This document shows, piece after piece, positions 1-26,338 of a stretch of 64,000 bases of DNA (position 1 is the first letter of the stretch; each line of letters opens with the position of its first letter). Source of the stretch: Methanotrichaceae archaeon (lineage in GTDB: Archaea; Halobacteriota; Methanosarcinia; Methanotrichales; Methanotrichaceae); contig CAVVKN010000018.1 in the NCBI GenBank assembly GCA_963748825.1, positions 32,001 to 96,000 of the forward strand, read 5' to 3'. Both the position numbers and the translations under genes were made by a program. The notes beneath the pieces were generated by a model. The model saw only the letters and a program-made list of their open reading frames with translations, made no database searches and had not been told where the DNA came from.

Positions 1-5
1 CAAGC

Positions 6-1091
6 ATGGTTAAGGTAAAGCTAGTAAACAATACGCCTGGCCTTCCTTCAACTCGACCTCCAATAGGTCCTGCTGCTGCTCCTGCTGCTGCTCCTGCTGC
101 TGCTCCTGCTGCTGCTCCTACGGAAAAGATCTTTGGGCCATTCACTGGTGGCAATGACGGCCAAGGACTTTCCTCCAAGGATGACTTTATTGGAGGCAAA
201 GATCCGCAGACAGGCCTATACGCTCTTGATAAAGCGGACATATTTAATCTGCTTTGTATCCCACCTGATGGAAGGGAGACGGATGTTCCTGCTGAAGTAT
301 TTCAGGCTGCAGCCGAGTACTGTCATAAGCGAAGAGCTTTCCTGATAGTTGATCCTCAGAAGAGCTGGGGAAAACTCAGGGAGAAAGCCGTTAAAAACGC
401 CAAAGATGGGGTCAACGGAATGAATCTAGGGGGTGAGAATGGTAGCAATGCCGCGATATTCTTCCCATGTGTACTCCAGATGGACTCTTTGAGAGGGGAT
501 CAGATTGATACCTTTGTTCCTTGCGGCATTATTGCTGGCATCATGGCCAGAACCGATACCCAACGAGGAGTTTGGAAGGCTCCAGCTGGCCTAGATGCTA
601 GCATTAATGTAATCGCTGGCCTCCAAGTGGATCTAAATGATGATGAAAACGGAGATCTTAATCCACTGGGAATAAATTGCCTCAGAAATTTCGATGTCTA
701 TGGAAAGGTTGTTTGGGGAGCTAGGACATTGAGGGGAGCGGACCAATTGGCTAGCGAATGGAAATATATTCCTATAAGGCGCTTGGCTCTCTATATTGAA
801 GAAAGCCTTTATCGTGGGACAAAGTGGGTTGTCTTCGAGCCCAACGATGAGCCTCTTTGGGCTCAGATTCGCCTTAATGTAGGTGCTTTCATGCATGGCC
901 TCTTTCGTCAAGGTGCATTCCAGGGTACGACACCAAGAGATGCCTATTTCGTCAAATGCGATAATGAGACAACCACCCAGGACGATAGAAATCGCGGAAT
1001 TGTGAATATAGTCGTGGGCTTTGCACCTCTTAAACCTGCTGAGTTTGTTGTTATCAAGATCCAGCAGATTACAGGTCAGATAGAGACTTAG
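6..1091 (+). CDS. Contractile tail sheath protein, C-terminal part (eCIS); probably 5'-truncated by the window edge
   Basis: Sheath C-terminal motifs: GIMARTD..RGVWKAPAG, LNPLGINCLR, VVWGARTL, WKYIPIRRL, WVVFEPNDEPLWAQIR, VGFAPLKPAEFVVIKIQQ. The frame is open to the window start. Confidence 0.93.
   Translation: MVKVKLVNNTPGLPSTRPPIGPAAAPAAAPAAAPAAAPTEKIFGPFTGGNDGQGLSSKDDFIGGKDPQTGLYALDKADIFNLLCIPPDGRETDVPAEVFQAAAEYCHKRRAFLIVDPQKSWGKLREKAVKNAKDGVNGMNLGGENGSNAAIFFPCVLQMDSLRGDQIDTFVPCGIIAGIMARTDTQRGVWKAPAGLDASINVIAGLQVDLNDDENGDLNPLGINCLRNFDVYGKVVWGARTLRGADQLASEWKYIPIRRLALYIEESLYRGTKWVVFEPNDEPLWAQIRLNVGAFMHGLFRQGAFQGTTPRDAYFVKCDNETTTQDDRNRGIVNIVVGFAPLKPAEFVVIKIQQITGQIET
69..119 (+). repeat. 12-bp tandem repeat (CCTGCTGCTGCT)x4 plus CCT, encoding a PAAA linker in the sheath
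   Basis: Read directly from the sequence; translates as PAAAPAAAPAAAPAAAP. Confidence 0.95.
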
Positions 1092-1643: not shown

Positions 1644-2378
1644 ATGCAATCGATCTCAGCCTCTGAGCTGCTCGATATCTGGGAGAAAGGATCAGCTAAA
1701 GGGCCAATCCAAAGAGCAATTTTTCTTCTGATCGTAGCATTTCCTGAAAAACCCACCATTGAACTGGCTAATCTATGCATTGGCGAAAGGGATGCACACC
1801 TCTTAGCGTTACGTGAATATATATTTGGACCTATGCTAAATGGCTCTGCCGTTTGTCCTAAATGCGGAGAAAAAATAGAGTTCGACGTCGATGTGGATGC
1901 GTTAAAAGAAGCCTCTAGCGCAAAATCTTCTATAGACCTATCTATGGAATGCGGTGAATATAAGGTGTATTTCAGACTTCCAAACACCTTTGATCTTGAA
2001 GCCGTTTCAGTCTACCGGGAAATCGATTCAGCTAGAGACAACTTGCTTAAGCGTTGTTTATCGAAATCGTATCATAATGAGTGTGAGATACCTCTGGATA
2101 GCTTGCCGATTGAAGTTCTTGATTTAGTGGCTGCAGATATGAGCAAACTTGATCCACAGGGTGATTTGCTTTTTGAGCTTTCATGCCCTATTTGCGGCCA
2201 TAAATGGCAGGCTATCTTCGATATTGTATCATTTTTCTGGAGCGAGATAACCGCTTGGGCACAACGCATGCTTCGAGAGGTTCATGTTCTGGCCTCGGCT
2301 TACCGTTGGCGAGAGTCTGACATTTTGGCAATGAGCGCTTGGCGACGACAATCTTACTTGGAGATGTTAGGTACATGA
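1644..2378 (+). CDS. Conserved eCIS protein with two CxxC motifs (baseplate or tail-assembly associated)
   Basis: CPKCGE and CPICGH motifs; C-terminal LREVHVLASAYRWRESDILAMSAWRRQSYL as seen after tube genes in CIS loci. Confidence 0.7.
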   Translation: MQSISASELLDIWEKGSAKGPIQRAIFLLIVAFPEKPTIELANLCIGERDAHLLALREYIFGPMLNGSAVCPKCGEKIEFDVDVDALKEASSAKSSIDLSMECGEYKVYFRLPNTFDLEAVSVYREIDSARDNLLKRCLSKSYHNECEIPLDSLPIEVLDLVAADMSKLDPQGDLLFELSCPICGHKWQAIFDIVSFFWSEITAWAQRMLREVHVLASAYRWRESDILAMSAWRRQSYLEMLGT

Positions 2379-3388
2379 GAGATTACCTCAGCAACCTTGT
2401 CGGCAGAAGTTTAAACCTTGTTGATGTTGTAAGACCAAGGTTAATTTCAATGTTTGAACCGCCTGCTATCCAGGCGGATGGTACTTTTTTTTATGCATCT
2501 CGATCCTCCGGCGAAAGAAATGGTGAGCCAGAATCTGCAATCTCAAGCGTTAATCTTCGCCAGAATTATGGAGATCGCAAAAAGGGTATAAATACATCTG
2601 AGCTGATTACTGCCAAGAATGACTCAAAGATGTCTTTAGAAAATAAATTATCTGAGCCTCAACCAAGAGCTTTCGAAGATCAGCCGTTTGTTGAGGTGGC
2701 TTTGAATCCAATAGGATCTGCATACGAATTAAAGAGCATGGAAAGCAAGAATAATAATTTCTCTGATATAGTAAGATCAAATGAAAAAGCAATAAGAAAT
2801 GTAAAAAGTCAAGAACGCTCCAAAACAAAAAATTCTTTGATCAAGGACGAAAATATTCCAGAGCACCTAGGAATATTTAAAGGAGATGATTATTCTTATC
2901 GCATATCAAATGAAGATAGATCGCAGGAATTACAGGGGCTAGATATCCCTCGGATTGAGATTGAAGGAAGCAAATTAGAAAGACAAGATAAAGACTCAGA
3001 GGCAGAACATCGGCAATTCAAGGTGCCAAATGCTTCTCGAGACGCTAATAGTAACGAGAGAGAATACTTGGATGGCAAGAATGAGCGAATTGATCCGGTA
3101 TTAAAGATTCCCGATATCGAGACTGATTCTATCGTCAGCATTCGAATGCCTTTCCACATGAAAATGCAAACACAGAAGGCTATAAAAGAAAATATTCCTC
3201 AATCCATTTCTTCATACCAGGGATCAGGATTGCGGGAAATCTCTGATCCGGTGGTTCAAGTTACCATAGGTCGAATCGATGTGAAGGCAAATCAGCAACT
3301 GCCTAAATCCACTGCTAAACGTTCACCCTCTATTGCTCCAAGCTTGGACGAATATCTCAAGAGACGCGCTGATGGAGGTATTAGATGA
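2375..3388 (+). CDS. eCIS-associated hypothetical protein, low-complexity middle and conserved C-terminus
   Basis: ATGA overlap with the upstream gene; C-terminal VQVTIGRIDVKA...SLDEYLKRR motif typical upstream of DUF4255 genes. Confidence 0.65.
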   Translation: MRDYLSNLVGRSLNLVDVVRPRLISMFEPPAIQADGTFFYASRSSGERNGEPESAISSVNLRQNYGDRKKGINTSELITAKNDSKMSLENKLSEPQPRAFEDQPFVEVALNPIGSAYELKSMESKNNNFSDIVRSNEKAIRNVKSQERSKTKNSLIKDENIPEHLGIFKGDDYSYRISNEDRSQELQGLDIPRIEIEGSKLERQDKDSEAEHRQFKVPNASRDANSNEREYLDGKNERIDPVLKIPDIETDSIVSIRMPFHMKMQTQKAIKENIPQSISSYQGSGLREISDPVVQVTIGRIDVKANQQLPKSTAKRSPSIAPSLDEYLKRRADGGIR

Positions 3389-4608
3389 GCAATCCATTAG
3401 CAATTGCTGCTGTAACGGCCACTCTCCAAAACCTCTTTACAAAAGAGATTCATAAAGATAATGCACTTTCAGATGCCATAATCACAGTACAGTCTCCGGA
3501 TAGAGCCAGAGGCAGCAATACTGCGAATCAGTTGAATATATTCCTTTACCAAGTTGCATATGATGCGGCATTCCGCAATGCTGTTATGCCTGGTCGATTG
3601 AGGCCAGGGGAGACAGGCTATCCGCCATTATCTCTCAGCCTTTTTTATCTGATCACTGCTTACGGCCAGGACAACGATGACACTAATAGCCATCATTTGT
3701 TAAGCAAGGCGATGAGCATACTGCATGATCATCCTCTACTGGGTGCGGATGAAATCAGGGACTCTCTTCCCGGAAACGATCTCTATAAGCAGCTAGAACG
3801 CGTGCGTATTACACCTCAACCTATCACCCTTGATGAGATGTCCAAGCTCTGGATGACCTTTCAGACTCAGTATAGGATCTCAGCTGCTTATCACATCTCG
3901 GTTGTGCTCATTGATAGCACTAGGGCTGTGACAACTCCTTTGCCCGTAATTAACCGCGGAGATGAGGATCAAGGAGCTGATGTTCTCTCCGCTCCCTCCG
4001 CTATCATTGAATCTATTGAGCTACCTGGAATAAAACGAAGCGCAGAGCTAGGAGATGTCATTACTTTAAAAGGCCAGCGATTTGATGACCAGATGAAATT
4101 GTACATACTAAATCAGCACATGCACGGCCCTGAGGATGAACCGATGCGAGAGGTGATATTAGAGCAGGAGCCTGGGAGCACGGCCAAAGAGATTAAGGTC
4201 AAGATACCCGATGATTCAACTAATTGGTCCGCAGGACTCTATACAATCCATGCCGCATTAAGCCTCAAGGGTGATAGAAAACTGACCACGAATGAGCTGC
4301 CCTTATCCCTGGCTCCAACCATTCTCAATATCCAACCCCCTTCAGCAAAGAAAGGCGATGTAACTCTGACCCTGACTGTCAAGCCCGATGTTCGGCCTAA
4401 ACAAGAGGTTTACCTTCTCTTCGGAAGTGATCAGATAGCTTTAAAAAGCAATCCTGCATCCGATGAACTCGTCTTTTCCTTTAATACTGCTAAAACAGGC
4501 GATCACATAGTTCGATTGAGGATTGATGGCGTTGACAGCATTCCAATCGATCCCAAGGCCACGCCTCCGAAGTTCGATGACAAGCAAAAGGTGAATATCC
4601 ATGATTGA
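3385..4608 (+). CDS. DUF4255 (Pvc16/Afp16-like cap) protein with C-terminal Ig-like domains
   Basis: MSNPLAIAAVTATL, QLNIFLYQV, LSLFYLITAYG, LHDHPLL, YRISAAYHISVVLI; beta-rich C-terminus ending VRLRIDGVDS. Confidence 0.85.
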   Translation: MSNPLAIAAVTATLQNLFTKEIHKDNALSDAIITVQSPDRARGSNTANQLNIFLYQVAYDAAFRNAVMPGRLRPGETGYPPLSLSLFYLITAYGQDNDDTNSHHLLSKAMSILHDHPLLGADEIRDSLPGNDLYKQLERVRITPQPITLDEMSKLWMTFQTQYRISAAYHISVVLIDSTRAVTTPLPVINRGDEDQGADVLSAPSAIIESIELPGIKRSAELGDVITLKGQRFDDQMKLYILNQHMHGPEDEPMREVILEQEPGSTAKEIKVKIPDDSTNWSAGLYTIHAALSLKGDRKLTTNELPLSLAPTILNIQPPSAKKGDVTLTLTVKPDVRPKQEVYLLFGSDQIALKSNPASDELVFSFNTAKTGDHIVRLRIDGVDSIPIDPKATPPKFDDKQKVNIHD

Positions 4609-6796
4609 GGACGATAGCTGGTACCATAAGAATGACAGGTATCTCGCTATTTCCTTGGCATGGATTCGAAGGCGATTGGAAAGGCTTGCAGAGAGGAATG
4701 AAATTGACGATGCTGAGGGCCAAGAAGATCAGGAGCTTTCAGAGGTTTCTAGAAATGTAGATACGCCAGTTCAATCAGAGAAGGGTTCCTTTTGGAGTCG
4801 ATTGAATCTGAGATTTAATGATCCGACTGAATCAGACAATGACCTGGATAAAGATGCATCAGATGCATCTCATGCAGAAATAAGCGATACTTATGACAGG
4901 GCAATTGATGATCCGGCTCAGTATGATGATCAGGCTCGGGCAGAAAATGGATTGGATGCATTTGAAGCGGATGAGCGTCCGCCTAACCTGATAGTGCTTA
5001 GCCGTGCTTTAGGCCTCAATAGGTTTGAAAGGAATCTGCTTCTTCTCTGTGCGGCTATGGAGCTGGATACGAGGATTCCGGGTCTATGCGCCCGCGCCCA
5101 GGACGATCATAACCGTCCTTACCCTACCTTTGCCCTGGCCATGGCGCTTTTTGATGAGCAACCCCATGATTTGCTCTCCCCCTTGAGGCCACTAAGATAT
5201 TGGCGGCTGATTGAGATCAACCAGCCTCCCGCTTATCCTCTAAGCATCAGTCCCTTGCGAGCCGACGAGCGGATTGTCAACTATATCAAGGGGCTGAACT
5301 ATCTGGATGATAGGCTCGCATCCCTCTTGACCCTTATAAAAGTATCCAAAGAATCTTCGATTCTTCCAGATTCTCAGAGCAAGGCTGTGGAGTCAATAGT
5401 TCATAATCTCGGCTCGTCCGATTCCCATCCACCAGTTGTTCAATTGCTGGGAATAGATTGCTCGACCAAACAGATGATTGCGGGTTATGCTTCTCGTAAG
5501 CTAGGAAAGAAGCTCTATTATTTGCCAATACAGTTGATACCCCAGCAGGTGGGGGAGATGGAGACATTTTCCCGGCTCTGGCAGAGGGAATGTAACCTTC
5601 TTCCCATAGCCCTCTACCTGGATGTTCATGAGTTCGACCATGCTCAGATGAATGCACAAGCATCCTTTCTCAGTCGCTTTTTGGACACAAGCAGCGGCAT
5701 GTACTTCATGGATACTAGAGACAGATGGACGGAACTGATAAGAGAATCCATTGTGCTGGAGACCGCCAAGCCTATAACTTCCGAACAGCAGGCAGCCTGG
5801 TCAAATGCCCTTGGGCTAAAATCAGATGGAATTCCTGCCAGGCTCGCTTGCCAGTTCGACTTGAATCTCAGCACAATAAATCAGATAGCTCAAAGAGAAC
5901 TGCAGGAATCGGACGGCAGCACTCTTCCTCTCGAAGACAGGCTTTGGCGATCATGCAGAGAGAGTACACGGCCTACTCTTGATGGGCTGGCGCAGCCTCT
6001 CAAGCCCGTAGCAACCTGTAAGGATATTGTGCTGCCCAAGAAGGAGAAGGATTTGCTGGATCTGATAGCACGGCAGGTAAAATATCGCTGCAAGGTTTAT
6101 GATAAAGGGGGATTTAGGAAGAAGATGAATCGGGGCTTGGGAATAAGCGTGCTTTTCGCCGGGGATAGCGGAACTGGAAAGACCATGGCCGCTGAGGCAT
6201 TGGCCAATGAATTGGACCTTGACATTTTTAGAATAGACCTTTCTGCAGTGGTCAGCAAATATATCGGAGAGACAGAGAAAAACCTGCGCCGCCTCTTTGA
6301 TGCCTTTGAGGGAAGTGGCGCCATTCTATTCTTCGATGAGGCGGATGCCCTTTTTGGCAAACGCAGTGAGGTAAAAGATAGCCATGATAGATATGCCAAC
6401 ATTGAGATCAACTATCTGCTGCAACGCATAGAGGCCTATCGCGGTCTAGCCATATTAGCGACCAATATGAAGAATGCTCTAGACCCAGCATTCATGCGAA
6501 GGTTGCGATTCATAGTGAATTTTCCATTTCCTGGAAAAGATGATCGCCTCAAGATCTGGAAAACGGTATTTCCTGATGAGACGCTCAAAGAGAATTTGGA
6601 TTTTGAGAGACTGGCTAATTTCGCCATTACTGGAGGCAGCATTCACAACATAGCTCTAAATGCGGCGTTTTTGGCGGCTCCTGCCGGAGTGCCAGTGTCA
6701 ATGTCCATGATCATGGATTCAGCAAAGATCGAATTTCAGAAGATGGGGATACGCATCAACGAGGCTGAGTTCACCCTTCCAGGGAGCAAGAAATGA
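4601..6796 (+). CDS. eCIS AAA+ ATPase (Pvc15/Afp15-like)
   Basis: Walker A GDSGTGKT, IDLSAVVSKYIGETEKNL, Walker B ILFFDEAD, HDRYANIEINYLLQRIE, DPAFMRRLRF. Confidence 0.93.
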   Translation: MIEDDSWYHKNDRYLAISLAWIRRRLERLAERNEIDDAEGQEDQELSEVSRNVDTPVQSEKGSFWSRLNLRFNDPTESDNDLDKDASDASHAEISDTYDRAIDDPAQYDDQARAENGLDAFEADERPPNLIVLSRALGLNRFERNLLLLCAAMELDTRIPGLCARAQDDHNRPYPTFALAMALFDEQPHDLLSPLRPLRYWRLIEINQPPAYPLSISPLRADERIVNYIKGLNYLDDRLASLLTLIKVSKESSILPDSQSKAVESIVHNLGSSDSHPPVVQLLGIDCSTKQMIAGYASRKLGKKLYYLPIQLIPQQVGEMETFSRLWQRECNLLPIALYLDVHEFDHAQMNAQASFLSRFLDTSSGMYFMDTRDRWTELIRESIVLETAKPITSEQQAAWSNALGLKSDGIPARLACQFDLNLSTINQIAQRELQESDGSTLPLEDRLWRSCRESTRPTLDGLAQPLKPVATCKDIVLPKKEKDLLDLIARQVKYRCKVYDKGGFRKKMNRGLGISVLFAGDSGTGKTMAAEALANELDLDIFRIDLSAVVSKYIGETEKNLRRLFDAFEGSGAILFFDEADALFGKRSEVKDSHDRYANIEINYLLQRIEAYRGLAILATNMKNALDPAFMRRLRFIVNFPFPGKDDRLKIWKTVFPDETLKENLDFERLANFAITGGSIHNIALNAAFLAAPAGVPVSMSMIMDSAKIEFQKMGIRINEAEFTLPGSKK

Positions 6797-7050
6797 GGAT
6801 AAACTTGCATATCGAGAGGCTTATTCTTGACGGCTTGCCACTTGAGCCCGGCCAGGGGCGTGTCGTGAAAGCAGCGGTTGAGGCGGAGCTGACCCGGATG
6901 ATTGCAGGCCAGGGCATATCATCAGAACTGATGACGGGAGGAGCAGTCCCTTCGGTATCAGCGAATGGCATTCAAATTGCTCCGGGGGCCAAACCGGCCG
7001 TCATCGGCAGAGAAATTGCCAGGTCGGTTTATGGAGGATTGGGCAGATGA
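6793..7050 (+). CDS. Small conserved eCIS hypothetical protein
   Basis: MRINLHIERLILDG...IGREIARSVY; ATGA-coupled to both neighbours. Confidence 0.7.
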   Translation: MRINLHIERLILDGLPLEPGQGRVVKAAVEAELTRMIAGQGISSELMTGGAVPSVSANGIQIAPGAKPAVIGREIARSVYGGLGR

Positions 7051-8516
7051 GCTATGAATTATTTGATCAGGCTCGAAAATATTTGCCAACTTCATTCATC
7101 AGCGGCTTGCTTCCAAGAGAATGCGATAAATGCCACGAAAAGAAACCGGCCTTGCAGCGCTCAGCCATCAATTCAGCTCCGGGATCTGTTCCGCCAATAG
7201 TGCATGAAGTATTGCGCACGCCAGGCCAGCCGCTGGATTCAGATGTTCGTGCTTTCATGGAGCCGCGCTTTGGTCATGATTTCGGTCAGGTTCGCATACA
7301 CACCGATGACCGAGCCGCAAAATCGGCACAGGCGGCAAATGCACTAGCTTACACAGTGAGACATGACGTCGTTTTCGACACAGCGCATTACGCGCCGGGT
7401 ACTCTTCCTGGGCAGAGACTGCTGGCCCATGAGCTGACCCATTTGGTGCAGCAGTCGAAAGGGAATGTGACAGGGACGATGGGCAAGAGTTCACCGGAGA
7501 TCAGCTCTCCCAGCGATCCATTGGAACGAGAGGCAACAAGGATCTCAGGCAGCATTGTTTCATCCGGCGCAGGAACTACAGGCCTTGAGGCCATAGCGCC
7601 CAGAGAAGATATCTCTGCTGCATCCGGGACGCAACTGTTGCGCCAGGTTGCTCCAAGCAGCGCGGAAGATGTTGATCTGGAGCTGGCCATGCCTGCAAGT
7701 GCATCGATGGCAGGTTCATTAACGATTGATAGATTTGAGTTGGACAAGGCCATCCTCACAAAGGAGCATCTGGGAGCATTATCCCAGCATACGAAGAAGC
7801 TGCAGAAGATCCTCAAGAGATACCCTGATTCGTTTGCTTCGGTCGTGGGCCATACCGATGCTTCCGGAACTGAAGAGCATAATGAGAAGCTTGGGCAAGA
7901 ACGAGCTGATGCAGTCCGGTCGGAATTGATCGCCCAGGGAATTTCGGGGGAGATTTTGCGTGCGGCGAGCCTTGGGGAGCGCTCGCTAATCGTACCCACT
8001 AAGGCGCCGGAGCCACGCAACCGTCGAGTGGAAATCCTATTTCAGTCACGAAACTTCATGGCTGGAAGATTCGGGACCGCTCAGAGTCCACCAATGTCGC
8101 TCAGGATGAGAGAAGGAGAAACAACGACCCCAAAACTACCCCCATCACCGCCTAGATCAATTTTCGATATCCTTAAAATTCCAGATATCAAGAATGAACC
8201 TAAGAATTGGTTAGAAGAAGCTTTGAAGCAAGATCGGCTATTGCGAACGCTGCCACGATGGGCCCGCGATAAAGCGATTGATGCGTTAAAAGATGCGGAT
8301 GAGATGGCGGCTGATAAAATAATCGATGCTATGCCCTGGGGCGGCAAGGAAAAGGAGGCTGCGAAGGCGGCAATAAAATCAATTCTGCAACTGTTGAAGG
8401 GTAAACGCTTCAAAGAGCCAACACCACCACTTCATGAGATGCCGCCTTCAGCGTCTCCCAAGTTCCAAGAGATGCCGGGGCAAGTCATCATTCCACTCTG
8501 GGAGAAAAAGTGGTAG
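7047..8516 (+). CDS. DUF4157 (eCIS core domain) protein with OmpA-like C-terminal domain; putative effector 1
   Basis: GQPLD..RAFMEPRFGHDFGQVRIH...ALAYTV...LLAHELTHLVQQ (HExxH); OmpA-like VVGHTDASG..HNEKLGQERADAVR...RNRRVEI. Confidence 0.85.
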   Translation: MSYELFDQARKYLPTSFISGLLPRECDKCHEKKPALQRSAINSAPGSVPPIVHEVLRTPGQPLDSDVRAFMEPRFGHDFGQVRIHTDDRAAKSAQAANALAYTVRHDVVFDTAHYAPGTLPGQRLLAHELTHLVQQSKGNVTGTMGKSSPEISSPSDPLEREATRISGSIVSSGAGTTGLEAIAPREDISAASGTQLLRQVAPSSAEDVDLELAMPASASMAGSLTIDRFELDKAILTKEHLGALSQHTKKLQKILKRYPDSFASVVGHTDASGTEEHNEKLGQERADAVRSELIAQGISGEILRAASLGERSLIVPTKAPEPRNRRVEILFQSRNFMAGRFGTAQSPPMSLRMREGETTTPKLPPSPPRSIFDILKIPDIKNEPKNWLEEALKQDRLLRTLPRWARDKAIDALKDADEMAADKIIDAMPWGGKEKEAAKAAIKSILQLLKGKRFKEPTPPLHEMPPSASPKFQEMPGQVIIPLWEKKW

Positions 8517-12152: not shown

Positions 12153-12640
12153 ATGACGCAGTATGAAGCTGGATCAGCGTTCATTCATGGTTCGTGATAA
12201 GGATTACAGCGGAATTCATCTTGGCATACCGGCCGCGTCTACGAAAGCGCTCGAGGCGCTAATTGGCGAACTGGCAACATCGCCTTTGGGACACTCACGT
12301 AGTTTTGCCGATCCCAGATAAACCGCCGCGACGGATCTTCGCTCGTGTGGTTATTGCCCGTTGGTTCTCGCATCGCATTGGAGTTGCGGTCGATTATATG
12401 ACGCAGATCCGAGTCCACAAGCAGGCTGGCATCGTCACATTGTCGCAACATTGTCTCATCTGAATTTCGAGAATGCTCGTGGTGATTTGCTTATTGTGGT
12501 TGCTCTAAGACGGATCATTCTGGTGTTGGCCGATTTGAAGTAGGAATTTACTTTAGTCAGTGGTTGCCTCATCATCTTTCTTCCAGTGATTTGTGGTATT
12601 ATGTGCATACCATGCGATGGATAAGGGTTCATCCAGACAA

Positions 12641-12661: not shown

Positions 12662-12684
12662 AAGATAAATAGGAGGCTCAAACT

Positions 12685-15684: not shown

Positions 15685-16052
15685 TGACTATGTATATCGA
15701 TTTTCCATATCACTTTGACGGCAGTGGCCGTACGGCCTCCGCAGATTACGACGACCATATTAGGGATATGATAGAACAGTTTCTGTTCACGAATGCAGGG
15801 GAGCGGGTCAACCGTCCTGACTTCGGCAGCGGACTGCTTCAGATAGTTTTCGCTCCAAATATTCCAGAACTTGCGGCAACACTGCAGCTCACCATTCAGG
15901 CAGGGCTTCAGCGCTGGCTTGGTGATTTAATAGACATCCATGCCTTGCAGGTCGCCAGCGAGGAGTCCGTTCTGAGGATACTTGTTCAATATGTAGTGCG
16001 AAAGACTGGGGAGCGTCGTACTGAACTCTTTCAGAGGGGTGGTTTGCTTTGA
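15681..16052 (+). CDS. gp25/GPW baseplate wedge protein
   Basis: HIRDMIEQFLFTNAGERVNRPDFGSGL. Confidence 0.9.
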   Translation: MMTMYIDFPYHFDGSGRTASADYDDHIRDMIEQFLFTNAGERVNRPDFGSGLLQIVFAPNIPELAATLQLTIQAGLQRWLGDLIDIHALQVASEESVLRILVQYVVRKTGERRTELFQRGGLL

Positions 16053-19054: not shown

Positions 19055-22000
19055 CAGAAATCTGCGGATGCTGCAAAGGCATTGAAGTCAAGACGCCGAT
19101 AGAGATATTTAATCGTCCAGGCTTAAACGGACTAGCCTACCGCATAGGCACCTATGCTAGCTTTATGGAGAGCATGAAGGCGAGGTTATCTGATCATGTA
19201 ATAAGCGTTCCCTGGATAACCGATGACAACGGAGAGCCTAAAGCTGTGGACGTATCTCCACTCAAGTACTTGATGATGCGGGAAGATGATCCGAGCATTG
19301 CCTTTATGGATGCTTGGGCCACTGTGGCAGATGTTTTGACCTTCTATCAGGAGCGCATTGCCAACGAGGGATACCTTCGAACGGCAACTGAACGCCTCTC
19401 TATTTTAGAGCTGGCCAGGCTGGTAGGATACAGACTCAGACCAGGGGTTTCTGCTACTGCATATCTGGCCTACACCATCGATGATGATAAGGCTGCCGAA
19501 ATACCGTTGAACGCCAGGTCTCAGAGCCTGCCGGAGCCGGGGGAGATGCCCCAGTCATTCGAGACCTCAGAAGTGCTGCAAGCCATGGGTGAGTGGAATA
19601 GCCTGAAGCCCAGAATGACCCGGCCCCAATATATTGATATCTGCAATGCTGAAACGGTAGATGTCCTCTATTTCAAAGGGATCTCTACCAATCTGAATCC
19701 CAACGATCCTCTGCTTTTCGAGTTCAGCAATAATCAACAGAATCAACAGGTCATCCGCTGGGTAAAGGAGGTTACTCCGGATCCCAAGACCAACACCACC
19801 AAGGTTGATCTTCTGGTATACTTGACGCCAGCTGCTATAATTAATGCTATAGCTCGTACAGTTAATATGTATCTCGATTTAGAATCATACTGCGTTTCAC
19901 CTGACAATGAAATTGCAATAAGAGTAATAGAATTCCTTCAAGAAATTAAAGTCGTAATAGATGAGTGCAATACTAGCGATAAAAGCGATACAATGTGCCA
20001 TGACGAGCTAATTGAAATCATAAAAAATTTTGATGAAAAGATTCCTAGCGATGTTGGACAGAATCCTCTAATAAAATTTTGGATATCTTCGCTTAAGACA
20101 GACCTGGAGGGATATCTTCCCACGGTATCATGGAGTTCTTCAATAGCTATGCTTGCAGGCGAAGGCATTAGGCGTGGAGTAAGAATTTCTGCTGCCCGAA
20201 ACTTGGAAGCATATAATGAGGTGTCCACTATTATAGCGGGTCTGGATGCAGCTCGAGTTCCACTTATGAAGAAAAGGTCGATACAGCCACGAAGCTCGAG
20301 ATATATAAATTTGCATGCCAGAGAACTCTATGCCCCACAGGCAGAAATCGGGACAAGGATGCTGAAGATCATGTATCCGAGGCTGGTGGATACTCTGGAT
20401 CGCGCTCTATCGAATGCCAGAGTCACAGCGCCCTCGAACCTGATAAGCGTCAATGCTTTTCGGGCCAAAGCTAGGCCGTTTGGCAATAATGCTCCGCAAA
20501 AACCGATCTACAATGACAAAGGCGCGATTAGAGGCTATGACGAGTGGCAACTTGCGTTAAAAGGGATAAAAAATATTAGAATTGATCTAATATTTAATAG
20601 GAAACCATTATCCTCGACGGCAGGAGTAACATATGATGATTCACTCGATGTATTTTTTAAAGAGATAGAGATTCAAGGTGAATTAGGTGCATCATTTAAA
20701 TTTGGAAAGAATGATGAGCTGAACTTAGAAATCAAAGCATATGTTGATAATTCTTTGTCAAATTATTTTTCTGAGTTTCATTTTTCTGGACCCATAAATC
20801 TCGATTTAAAAATTGAGGGTTATAACTCCATGAAAACCGATTTCTACTTCAACACTGAGAATTTCACTCTAAAGGTGGGCAACACACATATTATTTCAAA
20901 AAGCGCCGAAAGAATAGTAACATCAGTTAAAACGTATGACAACATTTCGATATTTTATGGAATACCCTTGAAGCCAGGAGAATATATTCAAAATATCCTA
21001 ACCTTAGATGCCCCTTACGAAAAGATCACTCCAGGGAGCTGGGTGCTTATCGACCGCCCTAATTCCAATCCAGGCCATGAAATTAGGAGATTCAAGGCAC
21101 AAGAGGCAAGAACTGTTTCTGAGGCTAATTACGGTATCACCGCTTCGGCTACGCAGCTCAGTCTAAAGCCGATGGAAAGTGGCAAAAACTGGCTCGAGTC
21201 CGATGACCTCACAATCTCCGTACTCCGAGGATCTACCGTATACGCCCAGAGCGAGATGCTCGAGCTTGCCGATGAGCCGATTGACCCCGAGCTTGAACCA
21301 GTATGCGGTGATGTCATCGAACTTGACCGCCTCTACACCGGCCTCGATCCAGGCAGGAGGCTTATCGTATCCGGTGAGCGCCTGGATGTTACCGGCACCA
21401 CAGGAGTCAGAGACGGCGAGCTGGTAATGCTGGCCGGAGTTACTCAGGACGTCATGAAAGTAAATTCTTTTATACCGATAGCTGAAAAAGAAAGATGCAA
21501 ACAGGAAGTTGATAAACAGAACAACTCTGTTCAAATTGGCTTGCCAGGAGATAAGACTCATACCTTCATAAAGCTGGCCAAGAAGCTGGCCTATGTCTAT
21601 AAGCGCGATACAGTAACCATCTATGGCAACGTCGTTAAGGCAACGCATGGGGAGACGAGAAACAACGAAGTTCTTGGCAGTGGTGATGCCAGCAAGTCAA
21701 TCCAGAGGCTTGCACTGCACCAGTCGCCCCTCACCTATGTCGCTGCAAATACTCCATCCGGCGCGAAAAGCACCTTGCAGGTCAGAGTGAATGATGTACT
21801 ATGGCACGAAGTCGATACAATGGCAGGCTTAAGGCCGAATGATCGCAATTATGTAATCTTTACCGATGACGAAGATAGGACCACTGTCGTATTTGGCGAT
21901 GGCAAGCAGGGGCTGCGACCGCCAACCGGAGTTGAGAATATCAGGGGCGTTTACAGAACGGGCATCGGCAAGGGAGGCAATGTAAAGGCCGAGAAGATCA

Positions 22001-22764
22001 GCCAGATGATGACCAGGCCCCTTAACGCCAAGAGCGTGATCAATCCCATGCGCGCCTCAGGAGGCGCAGACAGAGAGAACCTTCATCGAGCCAGGAAAAA
22101 TACCCCTCTGGCATTGATGGCCCTGGATCGCCTGGTCTCTGTGCAGGATTATAGCGATTTTACAAGGACATTTGCAGGCATTGAAAAAGCCAGCGCCGTT
22201 CGCATCTCCGATGGCAATAAGCAGCTGATTCATATCACCATAGCCGGAGCAGACGACATACCTATCGATGAGGATTCCGACCTCTATCGGAATCTGCTTT
22301 CAGCACTTATTGATTATGGTGATCCGGATCAGCCGGTAACGGTTGAGTTGCGAGATCTGATGCTTCTTCTGCTCAAGGCCGAGGTCAAGGTGCTGCCGGA
22401 CTACAAATGGGATTTCGTAGAGCCAAAGATCAGAGAAGCTCTGCTGGATGCATTTGGATTCGAAAAGAGAGAGCTGGGACAGGATGTCTACCTTAGCGAG
22501 GTTCTCAGCGTCATGCAAAATGTGGAAGGAGTAGGATATGTGGATGTGAATATATTGGATAGTATATCGGAAAAAACTTCCACTGACAATATTATGAACA
22601 TATATGAATCGAAATTGAAATCGAATCAACCCAGGCAATATATTAAAGCCAACCTGGCGATGCCCCCGACAAGCATCAATGCCGAGATATCTCCAGCGCA
22701 ACTGGCAATCTTCAGCCCGGATGCACCCCGCACCCTCGATCTGACGGAGGCGAAGAACTTATGA
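19051..22764 (+). CDS. Second baseplate J-like protein (Afp11/12 class)
   Basis: DVLTFYQERIANEGYLRTATERLSILELARLVGY, GNVVKATHGET, VVFGDGKQGLRPPTG, RLVSVQDY. Confidence 0.88.
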   Translation: MTEICGCCKGIEVKTPIEIFNRPGLNGLAYRIGTYASFMESMKARLSDHVISVPWITDDNGEPKAVDVSPLKYLMMREDDPSIAFMDAWATVADVLTFYQERIANEGYLRTATERLSILELARLVGYRLRPGVSATAYLAYTIDDDKAAEIPLNARSQSLPEPGEMPQSFETSEVLQAMGEWNSLKPRMTRPQYIDICNAETVDVLYFKGISTNLNPNDPLLFEFSNNQQNQQVIRWVKEVTPDPKTNTTKVDLLVYLTPAAIINAIARTVNMYLDLESYCVSPDNEIAIRVIEFLQEIKVVIDECNTSDKSDTMCHDELIEIIKNFDEKIPSDVGQNPLIKFWISSLKTDLEGYLPTVSWSSSIAMLAGEGIRRGVRISAARNLEAYNEVSTIIAGLDAARVPLMKKRSIQPRSSRYINLHARELYAPQAEIGTRMLKIMYPRLVDTLDRALSNARVTAPSNLISVNAFRAKARPFGNNAPQKPIYNDKGAIRGYDEWQLALKGIKNIRIDLIFNRKPLSSTAGVTYDDSLDVFFKEIEIQGELGASFKFGKNDELNLEIKAYVDNSLSNYFSEFHFSGPINLDLKIEGYNSMKTDFYFNTENFTLKVGNTHIISKSAERIVTSVKTYDNISIFYGIPLKPGEYIQNILTLDAPYEKITPGSWVLIDRPNSNPGHEIRRFKAQEARTVSEANYGITASATQLSLKPMESGKNWLESDDLTISVLRGSTVYAQSEMLELADEPIDPELEPVCGDVIELDRLYTGLDPGRRLIVSGERLDVTGTTGVRDGELVMLAGVTQDVMKVNSFIPIAEKERCKQEVDKQNNSVQIGLPGDKTHTFIKLAKKLAYVYKRDTVTIYGNVVKATHGETRNNEVLGSGDASKSIQRLALHQSPLTYVAANTPSGAKSTLQVRVNDVLWHEVDTMAGLRPNDRNYVIFTDDEDRTTVVFGDGKQGLRPPTGVENIRGVYRTGIGKGGNVKAEKISQMMTRPLNAKSVINPMRASGGADRENLHRARKNTPLALMALDRLVSVQDYSDFTRTFAGIEKASAVRISDGNKQLIHITIAGADDIPIDEDSDLYRNLLSALIDYGDPDQPVTVELRDLMLLLLKAEVKVLPDYKWDFVEPKIREALLDAFGFEKRELGQDVYLSEVLSVMQNVEGVGYVDVNILDSISEKTSTDNIMNIYESKLKSNQPRQYIKANLAMPPTSINAEISPAQLAIFSPDAPRTLDLTEAKNL

Positions 22765-24938
22765 ATATAGATAGGTTGTACAATCTCTTGCCGGCAATAT
22801 ACCGCATTCGTGATTCCGAGCAAGGTTATCCCTTGCGCTCGCTCTTGAGGGTGATAGCAGAGCAAGTGGACTTGGTCGAAGAGGATATCTACCAGCTCTA
22901 CGAGAACTGGTTCATTGAGACCTGCCAGGATTGGGTGGTTCCTTACATTGGTGATCTGGTCGGCTATAAGCAGGTTCACATAGCCGGAGAAGCTGATGTG
23001 ACTGCCACCTCCCAGAATCAGCAGCGCCATAAGATATTGATCCCTCGCAGAGATGTTGCCAATACCATCAAGCATCGGAGGCGCAAGGGAACATTATCTG
23101 TACTAGAGCAGATAGCAGAGGACGTCTCTGGCTGGCGGATTAGGGCGGTTGAGTCATATAAATGCTTGGCCTATAACCAGAATATAAATCACCTTTATCT
23201 GGAAAGAGGCAGAACTGTAAATTTGCGGAATTCAGAGGCCTTAGCGAATATAAATGGACCATTCGACCAACAGGCACATTTTGTTGAGATTTCAGGATCG
23301 AATGGCGGGAGAAGGACATACCATCTTAATGGAGTGGATGTCTTTGTCTGGAGGACAAGAGCATATTCTGTAACTGAAACAGAGGCCAAGAAGATCAAGG
23401 GGAAAAACCTCTTTACCTTCTCTGCCTTGGGCAACGAATCACCATTATTTGCCAAGCCAATTCACGGCCGGACTTCTGATGAATCAGGCGTTCCGATGCC
23501 TATCAGCCGCCAAGAACTAAGTGCGCACTTAGACAGATACTACGACATAATGGGGGACAGGAGTTTCAGGATCCGGAAGCTCATGGAGGGCGAAAATGTT
23601 TGGCAAACTGTTGATCCAAAGCATATCGTCTCCGCTGACTTGAAGAATCGTAGAATCTTAGAAGACAAAGAGTCCGGATTTGCAGTAGATCCCGATACAG
23701 TGGCAGTAGATCCGGAATTGGGGAAGGTCGCGTTCTTAGATCAAGTACCCGAACGGGTAAAAGTCTCTTATTACTATGGCTTTGCTGATGCAATCGGTGG
23801 TGGTGAGTACAACCGCTCTCTTTCTCAAGCCAAGGAATATAAGCTATACAGAGTAGGTCGCGACTGGTTCGAGAACATCAGTGCGGCCCTCAAAAAATGG
23901 GATGAGGAAAAGAAGAGCGAAGAGGATAAGGACGAAAAAGGCACAGTAAATGCATTAATTGAGATACTTGAAAGCGGATTATACGAAGAAAGATACGAAG
24001 AAAATTATGAAGAAAATAAAAAAATCAATATTCACTTAAATAAGAATGAAAGCCTGCAAATCAGAGCAGCGAATGGAGTCAGGCCGATCATCGAACTTGG
24101 AAACGATCTAAATGTAACGGGTGCAGAAGGAAGCAGCTTCACTATTGATGGTCTTATCATTGCAGGAGGGGCTCTCTCAATAAATGGCGAGGTTGCCAGG
24201 CTGGCAGTAAGACATTCTACTGTTGTGCCCGGCTTGGTTATCCCTTCAAACTGTAAGCCCAATCAATGCGTGTCCAGCATCAATATCCATGGCATGAAAG
24301 GTTGCTTATTTATAGAGAATAGCATAATTGGCCCCATCAATGTCGACAAAGGAACATTGGAGCCCATTTCTATTTCCATCAAGAACAGCATTTTAGATTC
24401 TCTGCATGCAGACCAAAAAATTGCGTCTTTGAGTTCCTCGTTTGGTTCTACGGCGCTTGCTGAGTTGAACATTCGCAACAGCACATTGTTGGGAAAGGTT
24501 CTGGTTCATTCCATAAAACTTGCTGAGAATACGATATTTCAGGGGAATGTGGAGGTCGCTCGCAGACAGGAAGGATGCATCCGTTTTTGCTATGTTCGAC
24601 CGGAATCAAGGACCCCGCAAAAGTTCAATTGTCAGCCTGATTTGACTTCCAAAGGGCTTAGCGGCATTGAAAAAATGCGGGCGGATGAGAGGGTCAAGCC
24701 GAGATTCATCAGCACCAAATACGGAAGCCCTTGGTATTGCGTACTTTCTGAGGACTGTGCAGATGAGATAAAGCGTGGTGCAGATGACGAGTCGGAGATG
24801 GGGGTCATGCATGACCTATACCGCCCACAGCGAGAAGCTAACCTGCATGATCGTCTTGAGGAGTTTACACCTGCAGATATGGAGATTGGAATAGTATTCA
24901 TGGGCGAAGAGGAAATTCAGGAGGATAATCAATTATGA
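22761..24938 (+). CDS. Tail/baseplate protein with P2 gpI-like N-terminus and beta-rich C-terminus
   Basis: RLYNLLPAIYRIRD, QLYENWFIETC.DWVVPYIGDLVG, RRDVANTI..RRRKGT; C-terminal GCIRFCYV...GADDESEMG. Confidence 0.8.
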   Translation: MNIDRLYNLLPAIYRIRDSEQGYPLRSLLRVIAEQVDLVEEDIYQLYENWFIETCQDWVVPYIGDLVGYKQVHIAGEADVTATSQNQQRHKILIPRRDVANTIKHRRRKGTLSVLEQIAEDVSGWRIRAVESYKCLAYNQNINHLYLERGRTVNLRNSEALANINGPFDQQAHFVEISGSNGGRRTYHLNGVDVFVWRTRAYSVTETEAKKIKGKNLFTFSALGNESPLFAKPIHGRTSDESGVPMPISRQELSAHLDRYYDIMGDRSFRIRKLMEGENVWQTVDPKHIVSADLKNRRILEDKESGFAVDPDTVAVDPELGKVAFLDQVPERVKVSYYYGFADAIGGGEYNRSLSQAKEYKLYRVGRDWFENISAALKKWDEEKKSEEDKDEKGTVNALIEILESGLYEERYEENYEENKKINIHLNKNESLQIRAANGVRPIIELGNDLNVTGAEGSSFTIDGLIIAGGALSINGEVARLAVRHSTVVPGLVIPSNCKPNQCVSSINIHGMKGCLFIENSIIGPINVDKGTLEPISISIKNSILDSLHADQKIASLSSSFGSTALAELNIRNSTLLGKVLVHSIKLAENTIFQGNVEVARRQEGCIRFCYVRPESRTPQKFNCQPDLTSKGLSGIEKMRADERVKPRFISTKYGSPWYCVLSEDCADEIKRGADDESEMGVMHDLYRPQREANLHDRLEEFTPADMEIGIVFMGEEEIQEDNQL

Positions 24939-26338
24939 ATGGCGAATTTAGAGGAGATTTTACCCGCGACAGCTTCGATCCAAAAAAGCACTTCAGCCAG
25001 GTGATGATGCAGCAGGGCAGGGTGATGTTGGATTCCGAATTCAACGAGCTGCAGCAAATCCTAACGCACCAATTGCGGACACTTGCTAAGACTTTAATAG
25101 GAGATCATGGCGGATTCGACAAAGGTTTCGAGATAGAAGTACCAACAAAAACAGATGAATCAAAAAACAAATTCAAAATACACCGGGGCTCCTATTATGT
25201 GGATGGAATATTATGCGAAAATGAAGAAGAACTAAATTATTCAGAACAATATTGGGCAGAAGAGCTTCCGAAACCTAATGATCTACGTTATTACCTCGTA
25301 TATCTGGATGCATGGGAGCGCAGCATAGGCAAGATACAGGACGAATCCGTTCTAGAGAGGGCTCTGGATGGAGTGGATACAGCGGCAAGATCCAAGATTG
25401 AATGGATAGTAAGAACCAAATATGTAGACTATTCAAGAAGCGAAAAAAAGCGCTTCTATGACGAAAATGGAGAGCCTTTGGACGAATTAAAGGATTTAAT
25501 AGATGGAGGCAAAGTCAAAGGCAGCTTGAAAGCTCAAATCAAAGAGTTAGAAGTTGCCGAAGATCTTTGCCAAATATCTACTTTTTCGGAACTTAAAGGA
25601 TTGCCTAATCTGCTTTATAGAGTAGAGGTTCATAGAAAAGGCAAAGCTTACAAAGAAGAGGTAATAGATCCAGATCCTGCAGCTACCTTTAAATGGTCTA
25701 GAATGAATGGGTCTGTAGATTTTGTAATCGATAAAATTGGTAGTCCGGCCGAAAACAATGATCAGACACTTATAGTTGATTTGAAACAAGATCTGGCAAA
25801 GGATAAGGACTTCGTATTGGCGAAAGGCGATTGGGTTGAGATTGTTGACGATAAAAGCGTGCTTAAAGGAAAGACGTTCCCTCTATGGCAGGTCCAAGAG
25901 ATAGAGAGCAGAATTGTAACTCTAAAACGCGAGATACCTAAACCTAAGAATGGCGGAGAGAATTCAGACGAATTTTGTGCCAAGAAAAATCCGCTCTTGA
26001 GACGGTGGGACCATAAAGGAGAATCAATAAAATCAAAGAACGGGGGAGTTTTGCTTTCGGAAGGAGCCTTATTGATAGAGGAAGGTAAAGACATCAATCT
26101 TGAAAATAATATTCAGATTACATTCACGGGTGGTGAATATAAATCAGGAGATTATTGGATAATTCCTGCACGTCAGGCAACGGGGGGAATTGACTGGCCA
26201 GAGGGAGAATTTTTGTCTCCGCATGGTGTTGAGCATCATATTGCCCCCCTTGCATTTATATCAATAAAGAACGATATAACAACATTTGCAGGTAGTTACC
26301 GTCGTGTGCCAAAAGAAAATTTTACTGAAGAAGATTAA
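24935..26338 (+). CDS. DUF6519-family protein, last gene of the eCIS locus
   Basis: GDFTRDSFDP.KHFSQVMMQQGRVMLDSEFNE, YYVDGILCEN, LYRVEVH, TFKWSRMNGS, GDYWIIPARQATG, PHGVEHHIAPLA. Confidence 0.82.
   Translation: MNGEFRGDFTRDSFDPKKHFSQVMMQQGRVMLDSEFNELQQILTHQLRTLAKTLIGDHGGFDKGFEIEVPTKTDESKNKFKIHRGSYYVDGILCENEEELNYSEQYWAEELPKPNDLRYYLVYLDAWERSIGKIQDESVLERALDGVDTAARSKIEWIVRTKYVDYSRSEKKRFYDENGEPLDELKDLIDGGKVKGSLKAQIKELEVAEDLCQISTFSELKGLPNLLYRVEVHRKGKAYKEEVIDPDPAATFKWSRMNGSVDFVIDKIGSPAENNDQTLIVDLKQDLAKDKDFVLAKGDWVEIVDDKSVLKGKTFPLWQVQEIESRIVTLKREIPKPKNGGENSDEFCAKKNPLLRRWDHKGESIKSKNGGVLLSEGALLIEEGKDINLENNIQITFTGGEYKSGDYWIIPARQATGGIDWPEGEFLSPHGVEHHIAPLAFISIKNDITTFAGSYRRVPKENFTEED

Follow-up and report, generated by a model that had tools for sequence, protein, structure and literature searches.

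A complete contractile injection system locus with predicted lineage II affinity in an archaeon of the family Methanotrichaceae

Extent and gene content of the locus

We analyzed a stretch of 64,000 nucleotides (the window; positions 32,001 to 96,000 of contig CAVVKN010000018.1, assembly GCA_963748825.1, or G000:C18:32001-96000 where G000 is the host genome) from a Methanotrichaceae archaeon, whose left part carries the genes of a contractile injection system (CIS). A first-pass annotation, made from the letters of the window alone, had described about 19 co-oriented genes of a near-complete extracellular CIS (eCIS) of the Afp/PVC type and had placed its left end outside the window. Searches against Pfam, NCBIfam, and PHROGs assigned genes from the sheath to DUF6519 and confirmed that a cluster of the CIS/eCIS superfamily is present. 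The genes are indeed co-oriented, but they number 20: the open reading frames (ORFs), all on the plus strand, begin 576 nt upstream of the window and end at window position 26338. In the upstream part of the contig the left end is complete; the sheath gene starts at window -576 (G000:C18:31424; -573 if the ATG at codon 2 is used), and the DNA that it abuts is non-phage. Rather than near-complete, the locus is, as far as its sequence can tell, a complete, single-copy, chromosomal CIS operon of the eCIS superfamily of roughly 27 kb.

Family matches were obtained for 14 of the 20 proteins, and four more could be assigned from profile or fold evidence. The predicted component set comprises the sheath and tube, the Pvc16 cap, an AAA ATPase, an Afp7-like initiator, a hub and a spike encoded by separate genes, a candidate PAAR-like tip, gp25, a pair of Baseplate_J proteins, a beta-helix adaptor, and DUF6519 as the fibre anchor, with three DUF4157 cargo genes mid-locus. 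Everything that defines the eCIS core backbone of Chen et al. (2019) was found, namely sheath and tube, Afp7-, Afp8-, Afp9-, and Afp11-like proteins, the Afp15 ATPase, and the Afp16 terminator. All 20 frames are open and full-length against their homologues. Four- or eight-nucleotide overlaps occur at 10 of the 19 gene junctions as the ORFs were called (11 of 19 if the gp25 gene starts at 15681); another junction abuts (gap 0), and one overlaps by 40 nt at a start that is uncertain.

The sheath gene (-576 to 1091) encodes a 555-aa Cis2/Afp2-like protein matching Phage_sheath_1/1C and phrog_23 (2.5e-58), and its translation probably begins at the ATG that forms codon 2. The inner tube gene (1104 to 1637; Cis1/Afp1-like, 177 aa) matches Phage_T4_gp19 (1.9e-44), TIGR02241, and the CIS1/CIS5 families. 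The next gene (1638 to 2378), which is conserved and specific to the lineage, encodes a T4_baseplate-like protein of 246 aa (PF12322, 1.7e-14; phrog_150 baseplate hub) with two Cys pairs that give it a Zn-ribbon-like appearance. A charged, low-complexity protein of 349 aa (2339 to 3388) has no family match and is poorly conserved between loci; its position and composition make it a candidate length determiner (tape-measure-like). Two further components follow, the Pvc16/Afp16 (DUF4255) tube/sheath terminator cap (3385 to 4608; 407 aa; Pvc16_N 3.1e-47) and an AAA+ ATPase of the Afp15/Cis15 kind (4601 to 6796; 731 aa) that matches AAA (1.8e-26), an N-terminal winged-helix domain (WHD, 1e-19), and phrog_10401 (2.7e-71). 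A small protein of 85 aa (6793 to 7050) is conserved after the ATPase in many bacterial loci.

Between the cargo region, which ends at 12152, and the baseplate subcluster lies a spacer (12153 to 12684) with no convincing ORF and no match to a sigma-70-type promoter or terminator; scans of two spacers with these models, which are unsuited to archaea, gave nothing above shuffled expectation. The baseplate subcluster opens with the Afp7/Cis7-like tube initiator (12685 to 13350; 221 aa), followed by a small protein of 105 aa (13357 to 13674) that neighbors the initiator in 13 loci and is called LysM-like from its sequence appearance and position, with no Pfam match. The Afp8/VgrG protein is split into a gp27-like N-terminal half, the baseplate hub (13667 to 14788; 373 aa), and a gp5-like OB-fold half, the spike (14785 to 15327; 180 aa; Phage_base_V 7.4e-18). 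A spike-tip candidate of 113 aa with conserved Cys and His residues (15343 to 15684; PAAR-like) sits between the spike and the gp25/Afp9-like baseplate wedge (15681 to 16052; GPW_gp25 2.3e-14), whose likely start is in an ATG cluster at 15681 to 15690 and whose longest ORF begins at 15525. Two Afp11/gp6-like Baseplate_J genes encode 1001 aa (16049 to 19054; TIGR02243 4.6e-81) and 1237 aa (19051 to 22764; TIGR02243 1.2e-72). The last two genes encode a peripheral baseplate protein of 725 aa (22761 to 24938) and a 467-aa DUF6519 (eBAP5) protein with a DUF4815-like N-terminus (24935 to 26338; DUF6519 5.8e-75, DUF4815 8.6e-8), which is a fibre or baseplate-anchor candidate.

Structural proteins assigned from profiles and models

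Single-sequence searches of the PDB with four unassigned proteins returned nothing usable. We therefore built profiles from syntenic homologues of the unassigned genes and searched these against PDB sequences, which succeeded for two of the four. The Afp7-like protein matched 9rce_H (9.2e-5) as well as All3321 of the Anabaena tCIS (7b5h) and Afp7 (6rao). The 373-aa hub protein matched the VgrG chain 9rce_F (5.7e-7) and All3320 of the tCIS, in addition to NCBIfam VgrG_rel (4.8e-4).

The Afp7-like gene, called from 12850 as 166 aa, seemed truncated because all 14 of its homologues extend about 55 residues further at the N-terminus. The missing residues are present in frame upstream of the called start, in a stretch without ATG, GTG, or TTG. 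An ATT codon at 12685, 8 nt after GGAGG, stands at the exact first position of the homologues and gives a protein of 221 aa. The gene thus probably starts at this ATT. Standard ORF calling shortens it and so creates a spurious gap of 697 nt; the gap reported by the first-pass annotation is in part coding.

With 4,399 representatives at E<=0.001, the family of the 725-aa protein is very large. The AlphaFold2 (AF2) model of this protein (pLDDT 85.5, pTM 0.84) predicts an N-terminal helical domain and a right-handed parallel beta-helix at residues ~353-684, which aligns with the PL6 alginate lyase 7dmk (VIA Z 21.8, root-mean-square deviation [rmsd] 3.1, 257 residues aligned) and with phage tailspikes (Z ~15). 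Foldseek returned nothing at E<=0.001 for this model. Weak Foldseek rows (E 0.04-0.3) to phage and diffocin baseplate proteins hint at the nature of the N-terminal domain; we did not rely on them. Relaxed Pfam thresholds produced hints only, one to CIS_tube (E 0.27) and one to Phage_Mu_Gp48 (E 0.04), the latter being the weak likeness of the N-terminus of the 725-aa protein to adaptors of the Mu Gp48/P2-I type. The eBAP5 (DUF6519) family is defined as a fibre anchor that sits downstream of the Baseplate_J genes in fibre-bearing eCIS, according to the report that describes it (PMC12923769). A beta-helix gene followed by a DUF6519/eBAP5 gene on the 3' side of the Baseplate_J genes, as seen here, is the arrangement described for such systems.

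Three DUF4157-headed cargo candidates

All three DUF4157 domains of the genome fall inside the CIS locus. The three proteins match DUF4157/eCIS_core at 2e-30 to 9e-33, and all have an HExxH motif as well as an N-terminal leader rich in Cys. DUF4157 has been described as an eCIS core domain that is fused or adjacent to toxins (Geller 2021, PMC8213781). In Halogeometricum borinquense, DUF4157 proteins were reported to be more abundant in the secretome of the wild type than in that of a sheath mutant, and two of them were toxic on expression (PMC11566945). We infer that the three DUF4157-headed proteins are cargo.

Cargo candidate 1 (7047 to 8516; 489 aa; eCIS_core 2.1e-30 with the motif HELTH) also carries an OmpA-like domain (OmpA 5.1e-13, with Pal/YiaD-type matches). 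This is the sole OmpA-family match in the genome; a control search with the family matched six bacterial and none of four archaeal control genomes.

Cargo candidate 2 (8578 to 10089; 503 aa) was assigned by family search and predicted structure. Its C-terminal domain (residues ~202-503) belongs to a small family, and H297, G298, and C350 are invariant in the 25 aligned sequences made up of the protein and 24 relatives (25 relatives were found). The AF2 model (pLDDT 81) retrieved SAVED-CHAT (8tl0) in Foldseek at 1.7e-5. Pairwise comparisons aligned it best with Tce1, a type VI secretion system (T6SS) effector (VIA Z 10.4, rmsd 3.6, 152 aligned), SAVED-CHAT (Z 10.2, rmsd 4.6, 162 aligned), and the MARTX cysteine protease domain (Z 10.0, rmsd 3.6, 155 aligned), and at Z 6-8 with CHAT, legumain, and caspases. 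These model comparisons point to a caspase-like (clan CD) cysteine-protease fold with a putative His-Cys dyad.

Cargo candidate 3 (10191 to 12152; 653 aa) has a degenerate and an intact DUF4157/eCIS_core domain followed by a C-terminal domain of ~350 aa. Its family is also small, with 24 relatives, and has many invariant His, Asp, and Glu residues in the C-terminal domain, which is probably enzymatic. The C-terminus has no match in the PDB profile search, Pfam, or the ESM Atlas, and Pfam found eCIS_core alone in the family, apart from a weak Peptidase_M78 match in 2 of the 24 members.

Host genome and flanking DNA

The host genome comprises 2.88 Mb in 25 contigs, is 94.9% complete, and has 50.8% GC. 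It encodes McrA and has four archaeal 16S genes, one of them on the contig of the locus, ~90 kb away. No ORF in the genome has three or more CxxCH motifs, and an ANME-2-type organism (anaerobic methanotrophic archaea, ANME), rich in multihaem cytochromes, is therefore unlikely. The McrA ORF itself (L004; G000:C2:161505-164885) gives 526 aa from a TTG start, and its N-terminus may be mis-called or interrupted; the usual length of McrA is ~570 aa.

The 32 kb upstream of the window contain metabolic genes (an FAD oxidase, a CCG protein, trehalose synthesis, and pyridoxal phosphate [PLP] enzymes), a response regulator, a nucleotidyltransferase/HEPN pair, and an IS66-like fragment. Downstream of the CIS genes we found HicAB and Phd/PIN-type modules, a SIR2_2 protein, leucyl-tRNA synthetase (LeuRS), a Hel308-type helicase with archaeal domain 4, and an archaeal Nre. 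The archaeal McrA, the 16S gene on the same contig, and the Hel308- and Nre-type genes therefore answer the concern, raised with the first description of the locus, that the contig might be a chimera, and they agree with its assignment to an archaeal host. That description had also reported no capsid, terminase, portal, or integrase genes and had named capsid or terminase genes upstream as the finding that would contradict it; searches for these families came up empty both in the upstream 32 kb and across the remainder of the window, and Terminase_6N, HK97 capsid, and Phage_portal had no match in the whole 94.9%-complete genome.

Between these metabolic genes and the sheath lies a left flank of 2.5 kb with 34.9% GC and no real ORFs (G000:C18:28948-31423; window -3052 to -577; L002:16948-19423). 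A 91-aa remnant on its minus strand (C18:30494-30769) is 58% identical by tblastx to the Hist_deacetyl gene of a genome from another genus of the host family (G015), where the gene is intact, divergent, and upstream of the sheath; the intact copy of the host genome is on contig C22. The remnant suggests that the island came with its flanking DNA from an archaeal relative. No Rfam family was found in the window or the AT-rich left flank. The window holds no tRNA, and therefore no integration site was identified.

Comparison with described CIS lineages

The gene-content scheme of Chen et al. (2019; PMC6899500) describes two afp11 copies in subtypes IIa and IIc and an afp8 split into gp27-like and gp5-like genes in IIa, IIb, and IIc, while IId has one afp11 and an unsplit afp8. 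In the same account IIb alone is without afp10, afp6 is confined to lineage I and IIb, the archaeal loci fall into IIa and IIc, and Afp and PVC are placed in lineage I. The present locus has two afp11 genes (16049-19054, 19051-22764), a split afp8 (13667-14788, 14785-15327), one sheath gene, and a candidate afp10, and afp6 was not found in it. Its gene content matches lineage II with the features of subtype IIc and does not support the label Afp/PVC-type. It shares with the lineage II eCIS of Chen et al. (2019), also named 'PLTS' in methanogens and ANME (Sarris 2014 as cited; Chadwick 2022; ANME-3 study 2025), eight core components, two afp11 genes, a split afp8, a single sheath gene, and DUF4157. 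Two things differ from IIc as described: most IIc loci are said to lack afp12 and afp13, whereas a beta-helix adaptor and a DUF6519 gene are present here, and the cargo set (OmpA-like, caspase-like, and an unassigned domain) is undescribed.

Among solved sheaths the nearest were 9ezm (H. borinquense Cis2, 245 bits) and 8bky (Streptomyces coelicolor Cis2, 232 bits). The CIS of H. borinquense (clade IIa) likewise belongs to an archaeon, has DUF4157 genes lying between two structural subclusters, encodes two Baseplate_J proteins, and has its hub and spike on separate genes. Its sheath, the best solved match, is nonetheless only 37% identical, its core proteins are 24-37% identical by blastp, and its ATPase is 31% identical over 637 aa. 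The gene order differs in that the baseplate comes first and the cap and ATPase are on the opposite strand, and the locus is plasmid-borne with partner genes for its cargo, whereas the present one is chromosomal and without immunity-like partners. The IIa type was ruled out on the sheath identity, on the gene order, and on the grouping of the H. borinquense sheath with that of another species of the host genus (G045) rather than with that of our host.

Lineage II also includes the CIS of S. coelicolor (IId, 8BKY), whose sheath aligns over its full length, and that of Roseiflexus. Some Actinomycetota loci share synteny with ours at up to 49% sheath identity. The IId type was ruled out by its single afp11 and contiguous afp8, against the two afp11 and split afp8 here. 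The lineage I systems Afp and PVC (6RAO, 6J0B) share the overall machine, DUF4255/Pvc16, the AAA ATPase, and DUF4157. They own three sheath paralogues, the Afp14 tape measure, and an adenovirus-like Afp13 fibre, and their sheaths match ours in the C-terminal domain only (~150 bits). The Afp13 and Afp14 families had no match in the locus (Pfam, NCBIfam, PHROGs), the genome has one sheath gene, and DUF6519 is found instead.

Relatives and horizontal origin

A sheath search of a 5.8-billion-protein collection gave best matches at 63% identity, and every named one among the 120 matches listed was bacterial. The best 80 loci from species-representative genomes, a listing from which records of the host's own genome may be left out, were likewise all bacterial and came from many phyla. 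Synteny is strong: of the 54 bacterial loci whose downstream sequence reaches at least 7.5 kb, 53 keep the order sheath, tube, Zn-ribbon protein, Pvc16, ATPase, and of the 52 reaching at least 9.5 kb, 44 have a DUF4157 gene after the ATPase.

Related sheaths also occur in 36 of 100 sampled genomes of the host family (best identity 66%), and a CIS-type ATPase (E<=1e-60) in 27 of 58 other species of the host genus (best 60%, up to three matches per genome). The whole structural gene order is common to our locus and that of G015, at 33-77% identity, while the cargo layout is different. In a FastTree of 107 sheaths, the host-family sequences were scattered in many separate places among bacteria. 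We then used a maximum-likelihood tree of 55 rows (25 archaeal, 28 hand-picked bacterial, H. borinquense as outgroup, and the host sheath). The host sheath paired with that of G015 (SH-aLRT 98), nested in a five-row clade (95) with two Gammaproteobacteria and a Verrucomicrobium. The starred branches of this tree force at least eight changes of the archaeal label, and an approximately unbiased (AU) test rejected a single archaeal clade (log-likelihood difference 587, p-AU 2.2e-10). The GC content at third codon positions (GC3) was 0.46 for 17 CIS genes vs 0.68 for 11 neighboring host genes.

By its composition and the placement of its sheath, the locus is foreign and appears to have come by horizontal transfer out of a gene pool that it shares for the most part with bacteria. 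The trees are also evidence for repeated inter-domain exchange of CIS within one methanogen family. In the sheath phylogeny, which had been proposed for naming subtype and donor, the host sheath nests among bacterial sequences; the subtype came from gene content.

Other arrangements were seen among the relatives. In G045, two adjacent sheath genes are of a type different from that of our host (G045:C1:1797081-1801173; L126). The sheath of H. borinquense (IIa) is the partner of one of the two in the tree, apart from that of our host, and the host genus therefore holds at least two CIS lineages. In four relatives (G068:C5, G070:C5, G081:C49, and G026:C11), the first 90-107 sheath codons stand in a separate ORF ~200-500 nt away, and the sheaths of four others (G033, G024, G087, and G004) are 690-1065 aa long, with a large insertion that follows residue ~100-240.

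Proposed mechanism and mode of use

We consider it very probable that the locus is a complete, single-copy lineage II CIS operon that was acquired horizontally by a McrA-positive archaeon and carries DUF4157 cargo. The architecture of the particle is read here by homology; its loading, delivery, and target are inferred. The sheath would polymerize round a tube that is built on the Afp7-like initiator and the split gp27/gp5-type hub and spike, with a tip that is probably PAAR-like. The baseplate would consist of gp25, the two gp6-like Baseplate_J proteins, the beta-helix adaptor, and the DUF6519 anchor or fibre; the Pvc16-type protein would cap the particle, and the dedicated AAA+ ATPase would serve it. 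The DUF4157 proteins would be loaded as cargo, bringing an OmpA-like peptidoglycan binder, a caspase-like cysteine protease, and a third, probably enzymatic domain. Contraction of the sheath would then drive the tube and spike through the envelope of the target and deliver this cargo.

How such a particle would be used is a more tentative matter. The first-pass annotation had called the system extracellular, which is not established: of the characterized lineage II systems, that of Halogeometricum is described as membrane-anchored (PMC11566945) and those of Streptomyces and Roseiflexus as cytoplasmic (PMC12998442). It had also seen neither a lysis gene nor a membrane anchor, and here our searches agree, with no convincing transmembrane (TM) segment in any cluster protein, no TM protein in or beside the cluster, and no lysis or release gene in the locus or the rest of the window. 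We give our preference, at a little under an even chance, to particles that are released freely or fired at close range against neighboring bacteria. We counted for this outward use the tailspike-like beta-helix protein followed by the DUF6519 gene, the lack of a membrane protein in or next to the cluster, the lack of a homologue of the H. borinquense anchor candidates in the genome, and a peptidoglycan-binding cargo domain that has no evident host substrate.

Several points weigh against a horizontally acquired, outward-acting lineage II machine of this kind. The lineage II systems characterized in the reports cited here all act from inside the cell (PMC11566945, PMC12998442), and the mode of action of a CIS is said to be predicted poorly by sequence alone (PMC12998442). 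The DUF6519 protein is short (467 aa) and without the long distal shaft or receptor-binding modules described for eBAP5 fibres (PMC12923769), and therefore target binding is only putative. The spike-tip candidate has a weak profile match to the phiKZ PAAR tip (E 0.064) and no Pfam match, and the non-canonical ATT start could lower or abolish translation of the Afp7-like protein. The absence of a lysis or release gene counts here as well. On the cargo side, the OmpA-like domain may be mere inheritance from a bacterial donor, and the toxin-immunity pairing of H. borinquense has no counterpart here, with no immunity-like ORF after any of the three cargo genes. Subtype IIc was assigned from gene content and not from a tree with dbeCIS references. 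In the sheath trees, the bacterial rows are best matches to an alignment centered on the host sheath, and the archaeal group entered in the AU test was chosen once the FastTree had been seen.

A more specific version of the outward use, which we think unlikely, has IIc-type particles bind bacterial glycans through the beta-helix and DUF6519 proteins and inject the peptidoglycan binder, the caspase-like protease, and a new enzyme. The family would in this way police syntrophic or competing bacteria with systems of this kind, taken up from bacteria on at least eight separate occasions.

Rather improbable, to our mind, is a membrane-anchored, contact-dependent 'archaeal T6SS' as in H. borinquense, which would be put together on the cytoplasmic membrane, fire outward across the envelope into touching neighbors, and deliver DUF4157 toxins. 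The only archaeal CIS studied works in this way and secretes such toxins (PMC11566945), both loci consist of two structural subclusters split by a DUF4157 'interspacing' region, and no lysis gene is present. The H. borinquense system is distant, however, being the outgroup in the trees with the sheath and core identities given above. It also has a 6-TM anchor candidate upstream of its cluster, Hbor_38620, to which RS17580 probably corresponds by its six TM segments and its length of 388 aa. A tblastn search of the whole host genome with both multi-TM proteins from upstream of the H. borinquense cluster found no homologue at E<=1e-3, and no TM protein stands in or beside our cluster.

We give a similarly low rating to a cytoplasmic CIS as in Streptomyces and Roseiflexus, whose firing under stress would kill or lyse the producer as a form of population-level or developmental control. 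The Streptomyces Cis2 (8bky) is the second-best solved sheath match, Actinomycetota loci with the same synteny stand inside the same large sheath clade, and the locus shows no anchor, no release genes, and no immunity genes beside the cargo. The afp11 and afp8 arrangement nevertheless separates it from IId, and the beta-helix and DUF6519/eBAP5 genes are present where the report on eBAP5 expects intracellular systems to be without fibres (PMC12923769). For the peptidoglycan-binding cargo domain, the sole OmpA-like one of the genome, the host offers no evident substrate.

It is quite unlikely that the locus is a decaying, non-functional relic of a transferred island. Its composition is un-ameliorated, a gene remnant lies in the AT-rich left flank, ATT is the start of the Afp7-like gene, and none of the three RNA runs listed contains the locus, with next to none of the sampled words in them. 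Against decay stand the 20 open, full-length frames, the 4- or 8-nt overlaps kept at 10 or 11 of 19 junctions, and the GGAGG placed 8 nt before the ATT. We rejected as scarcely credible a prophage tail module or a bacterial contig placed in an archaeal genome by an error of binning or assembly: among the matches listed, the closest named relatives of the sheath are bacterial and GC3 differs from that of host genes, but head and packaging genes are absent from flanks and genome, Pvc16, the AAA ATPase, and DUF4157 are eCIS markers (PMC8213781), the 151-kb contig has an archaeal 16S gene, with genes of archaeal type flanking the locus on either side, and related sheaths recur across the family.

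Earlier reports and significance

The first-pass annotation stated that such loci are predicted in some archaea, and CIS or 'PLTS' in methanogens and ANME are in fact already in print. Chen et al. (2019; PMC6899500) counted 10 archaeal eCIS loci and described horizontal gene transfer as frequent, and Geller (2021; PMC8213781) listed eCIS in 19 archaeal genomes and noted transfer between bacteria and archaea. Chadwick (2022) described PLTS in all ANME groups with synteny like that of Methanomethylovorans hollandica, the ANME-3 study (2025) reported a horizontally acquired CIS in 10 of 21 genomes, and Evseev (2022) listed sheath genes of M. hollandica and of a Methanothrix metagenome-assembled genome. 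As a genomic finding, the locus is therefore a repetition of several published reports of methanogen CIS. The annotation had also known of no functional study in methanogens; Zachs (2024; PMC11566945) named the methanogen CIS unexplored, and we found no functional study of one in the literature searched. New here are the left end and completeness of the locus, its lineage assignment, the evidence for repeated inter-domain exchange within one methanogen family, and the annotation of the cargo.

Methanogens live in tight consortia with bacteria. We know of no demonstration of molecular antagonism or targeted protein delivery by a methanogen. CIS are common in the genus (27 of 58 other species) and have repeatedly been exchanged with bacteria, and they are therefore probably ecologically relevant. 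A complete, compact, chromosomal locus with three cargo genes is a reasonable candidate for a first functional test in a methanogen, and subtype IIc appears to be without a characterized member. If the reading as an anti-bacterial weapon were true, methanogens would gain their first demonstrated inter-domain injection system, and subtype IIc its first functional representative.

Other features of the surrounding DNA

A toxin-antitoxin islet lies just 3' of the CIS genes (window 26600-28600), with HicB-like genes at 26604-26828 and 27221-27445, a HicA-like gene at 27408-27671, and a Phd-like antitoxin gene at 27983-28252 with a PIN gene at 28201-28596. A GC-rich repeat of ~300 nt occurs among these genes in six copies at window 26860-30570, with a seventh match on the contig at ~34000. 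The repeat gave 35 BLAST high-scoring segment pairs on 14 contigs, is dispersed and resembles a miniature inverted-repeat transposable element (MITE-like), and creates spurious ORFs. Between the islet and LeuRS, a 508-aa SIR2_2-domain protein (30885-32411, minus strand) and a 173-aa protein (29004-29525, minus strand) may form a defence module.

Upstream, a PLP enzyme of Cys/Met metabolism (L002:10551-11751) is split into overlapping ORFs that cover profile positions 2-270 and 264-380, by a frameshift or a sequencing error. Further downstream, window 48434-50284 encodes a 616-aa protein with Dictyostelium CTDC repeats, and window 53543-58054 encodes a 1503-aa protein of the Peptidase_C25 (gingipain) family; both are large and probably surface-exposed proteins.

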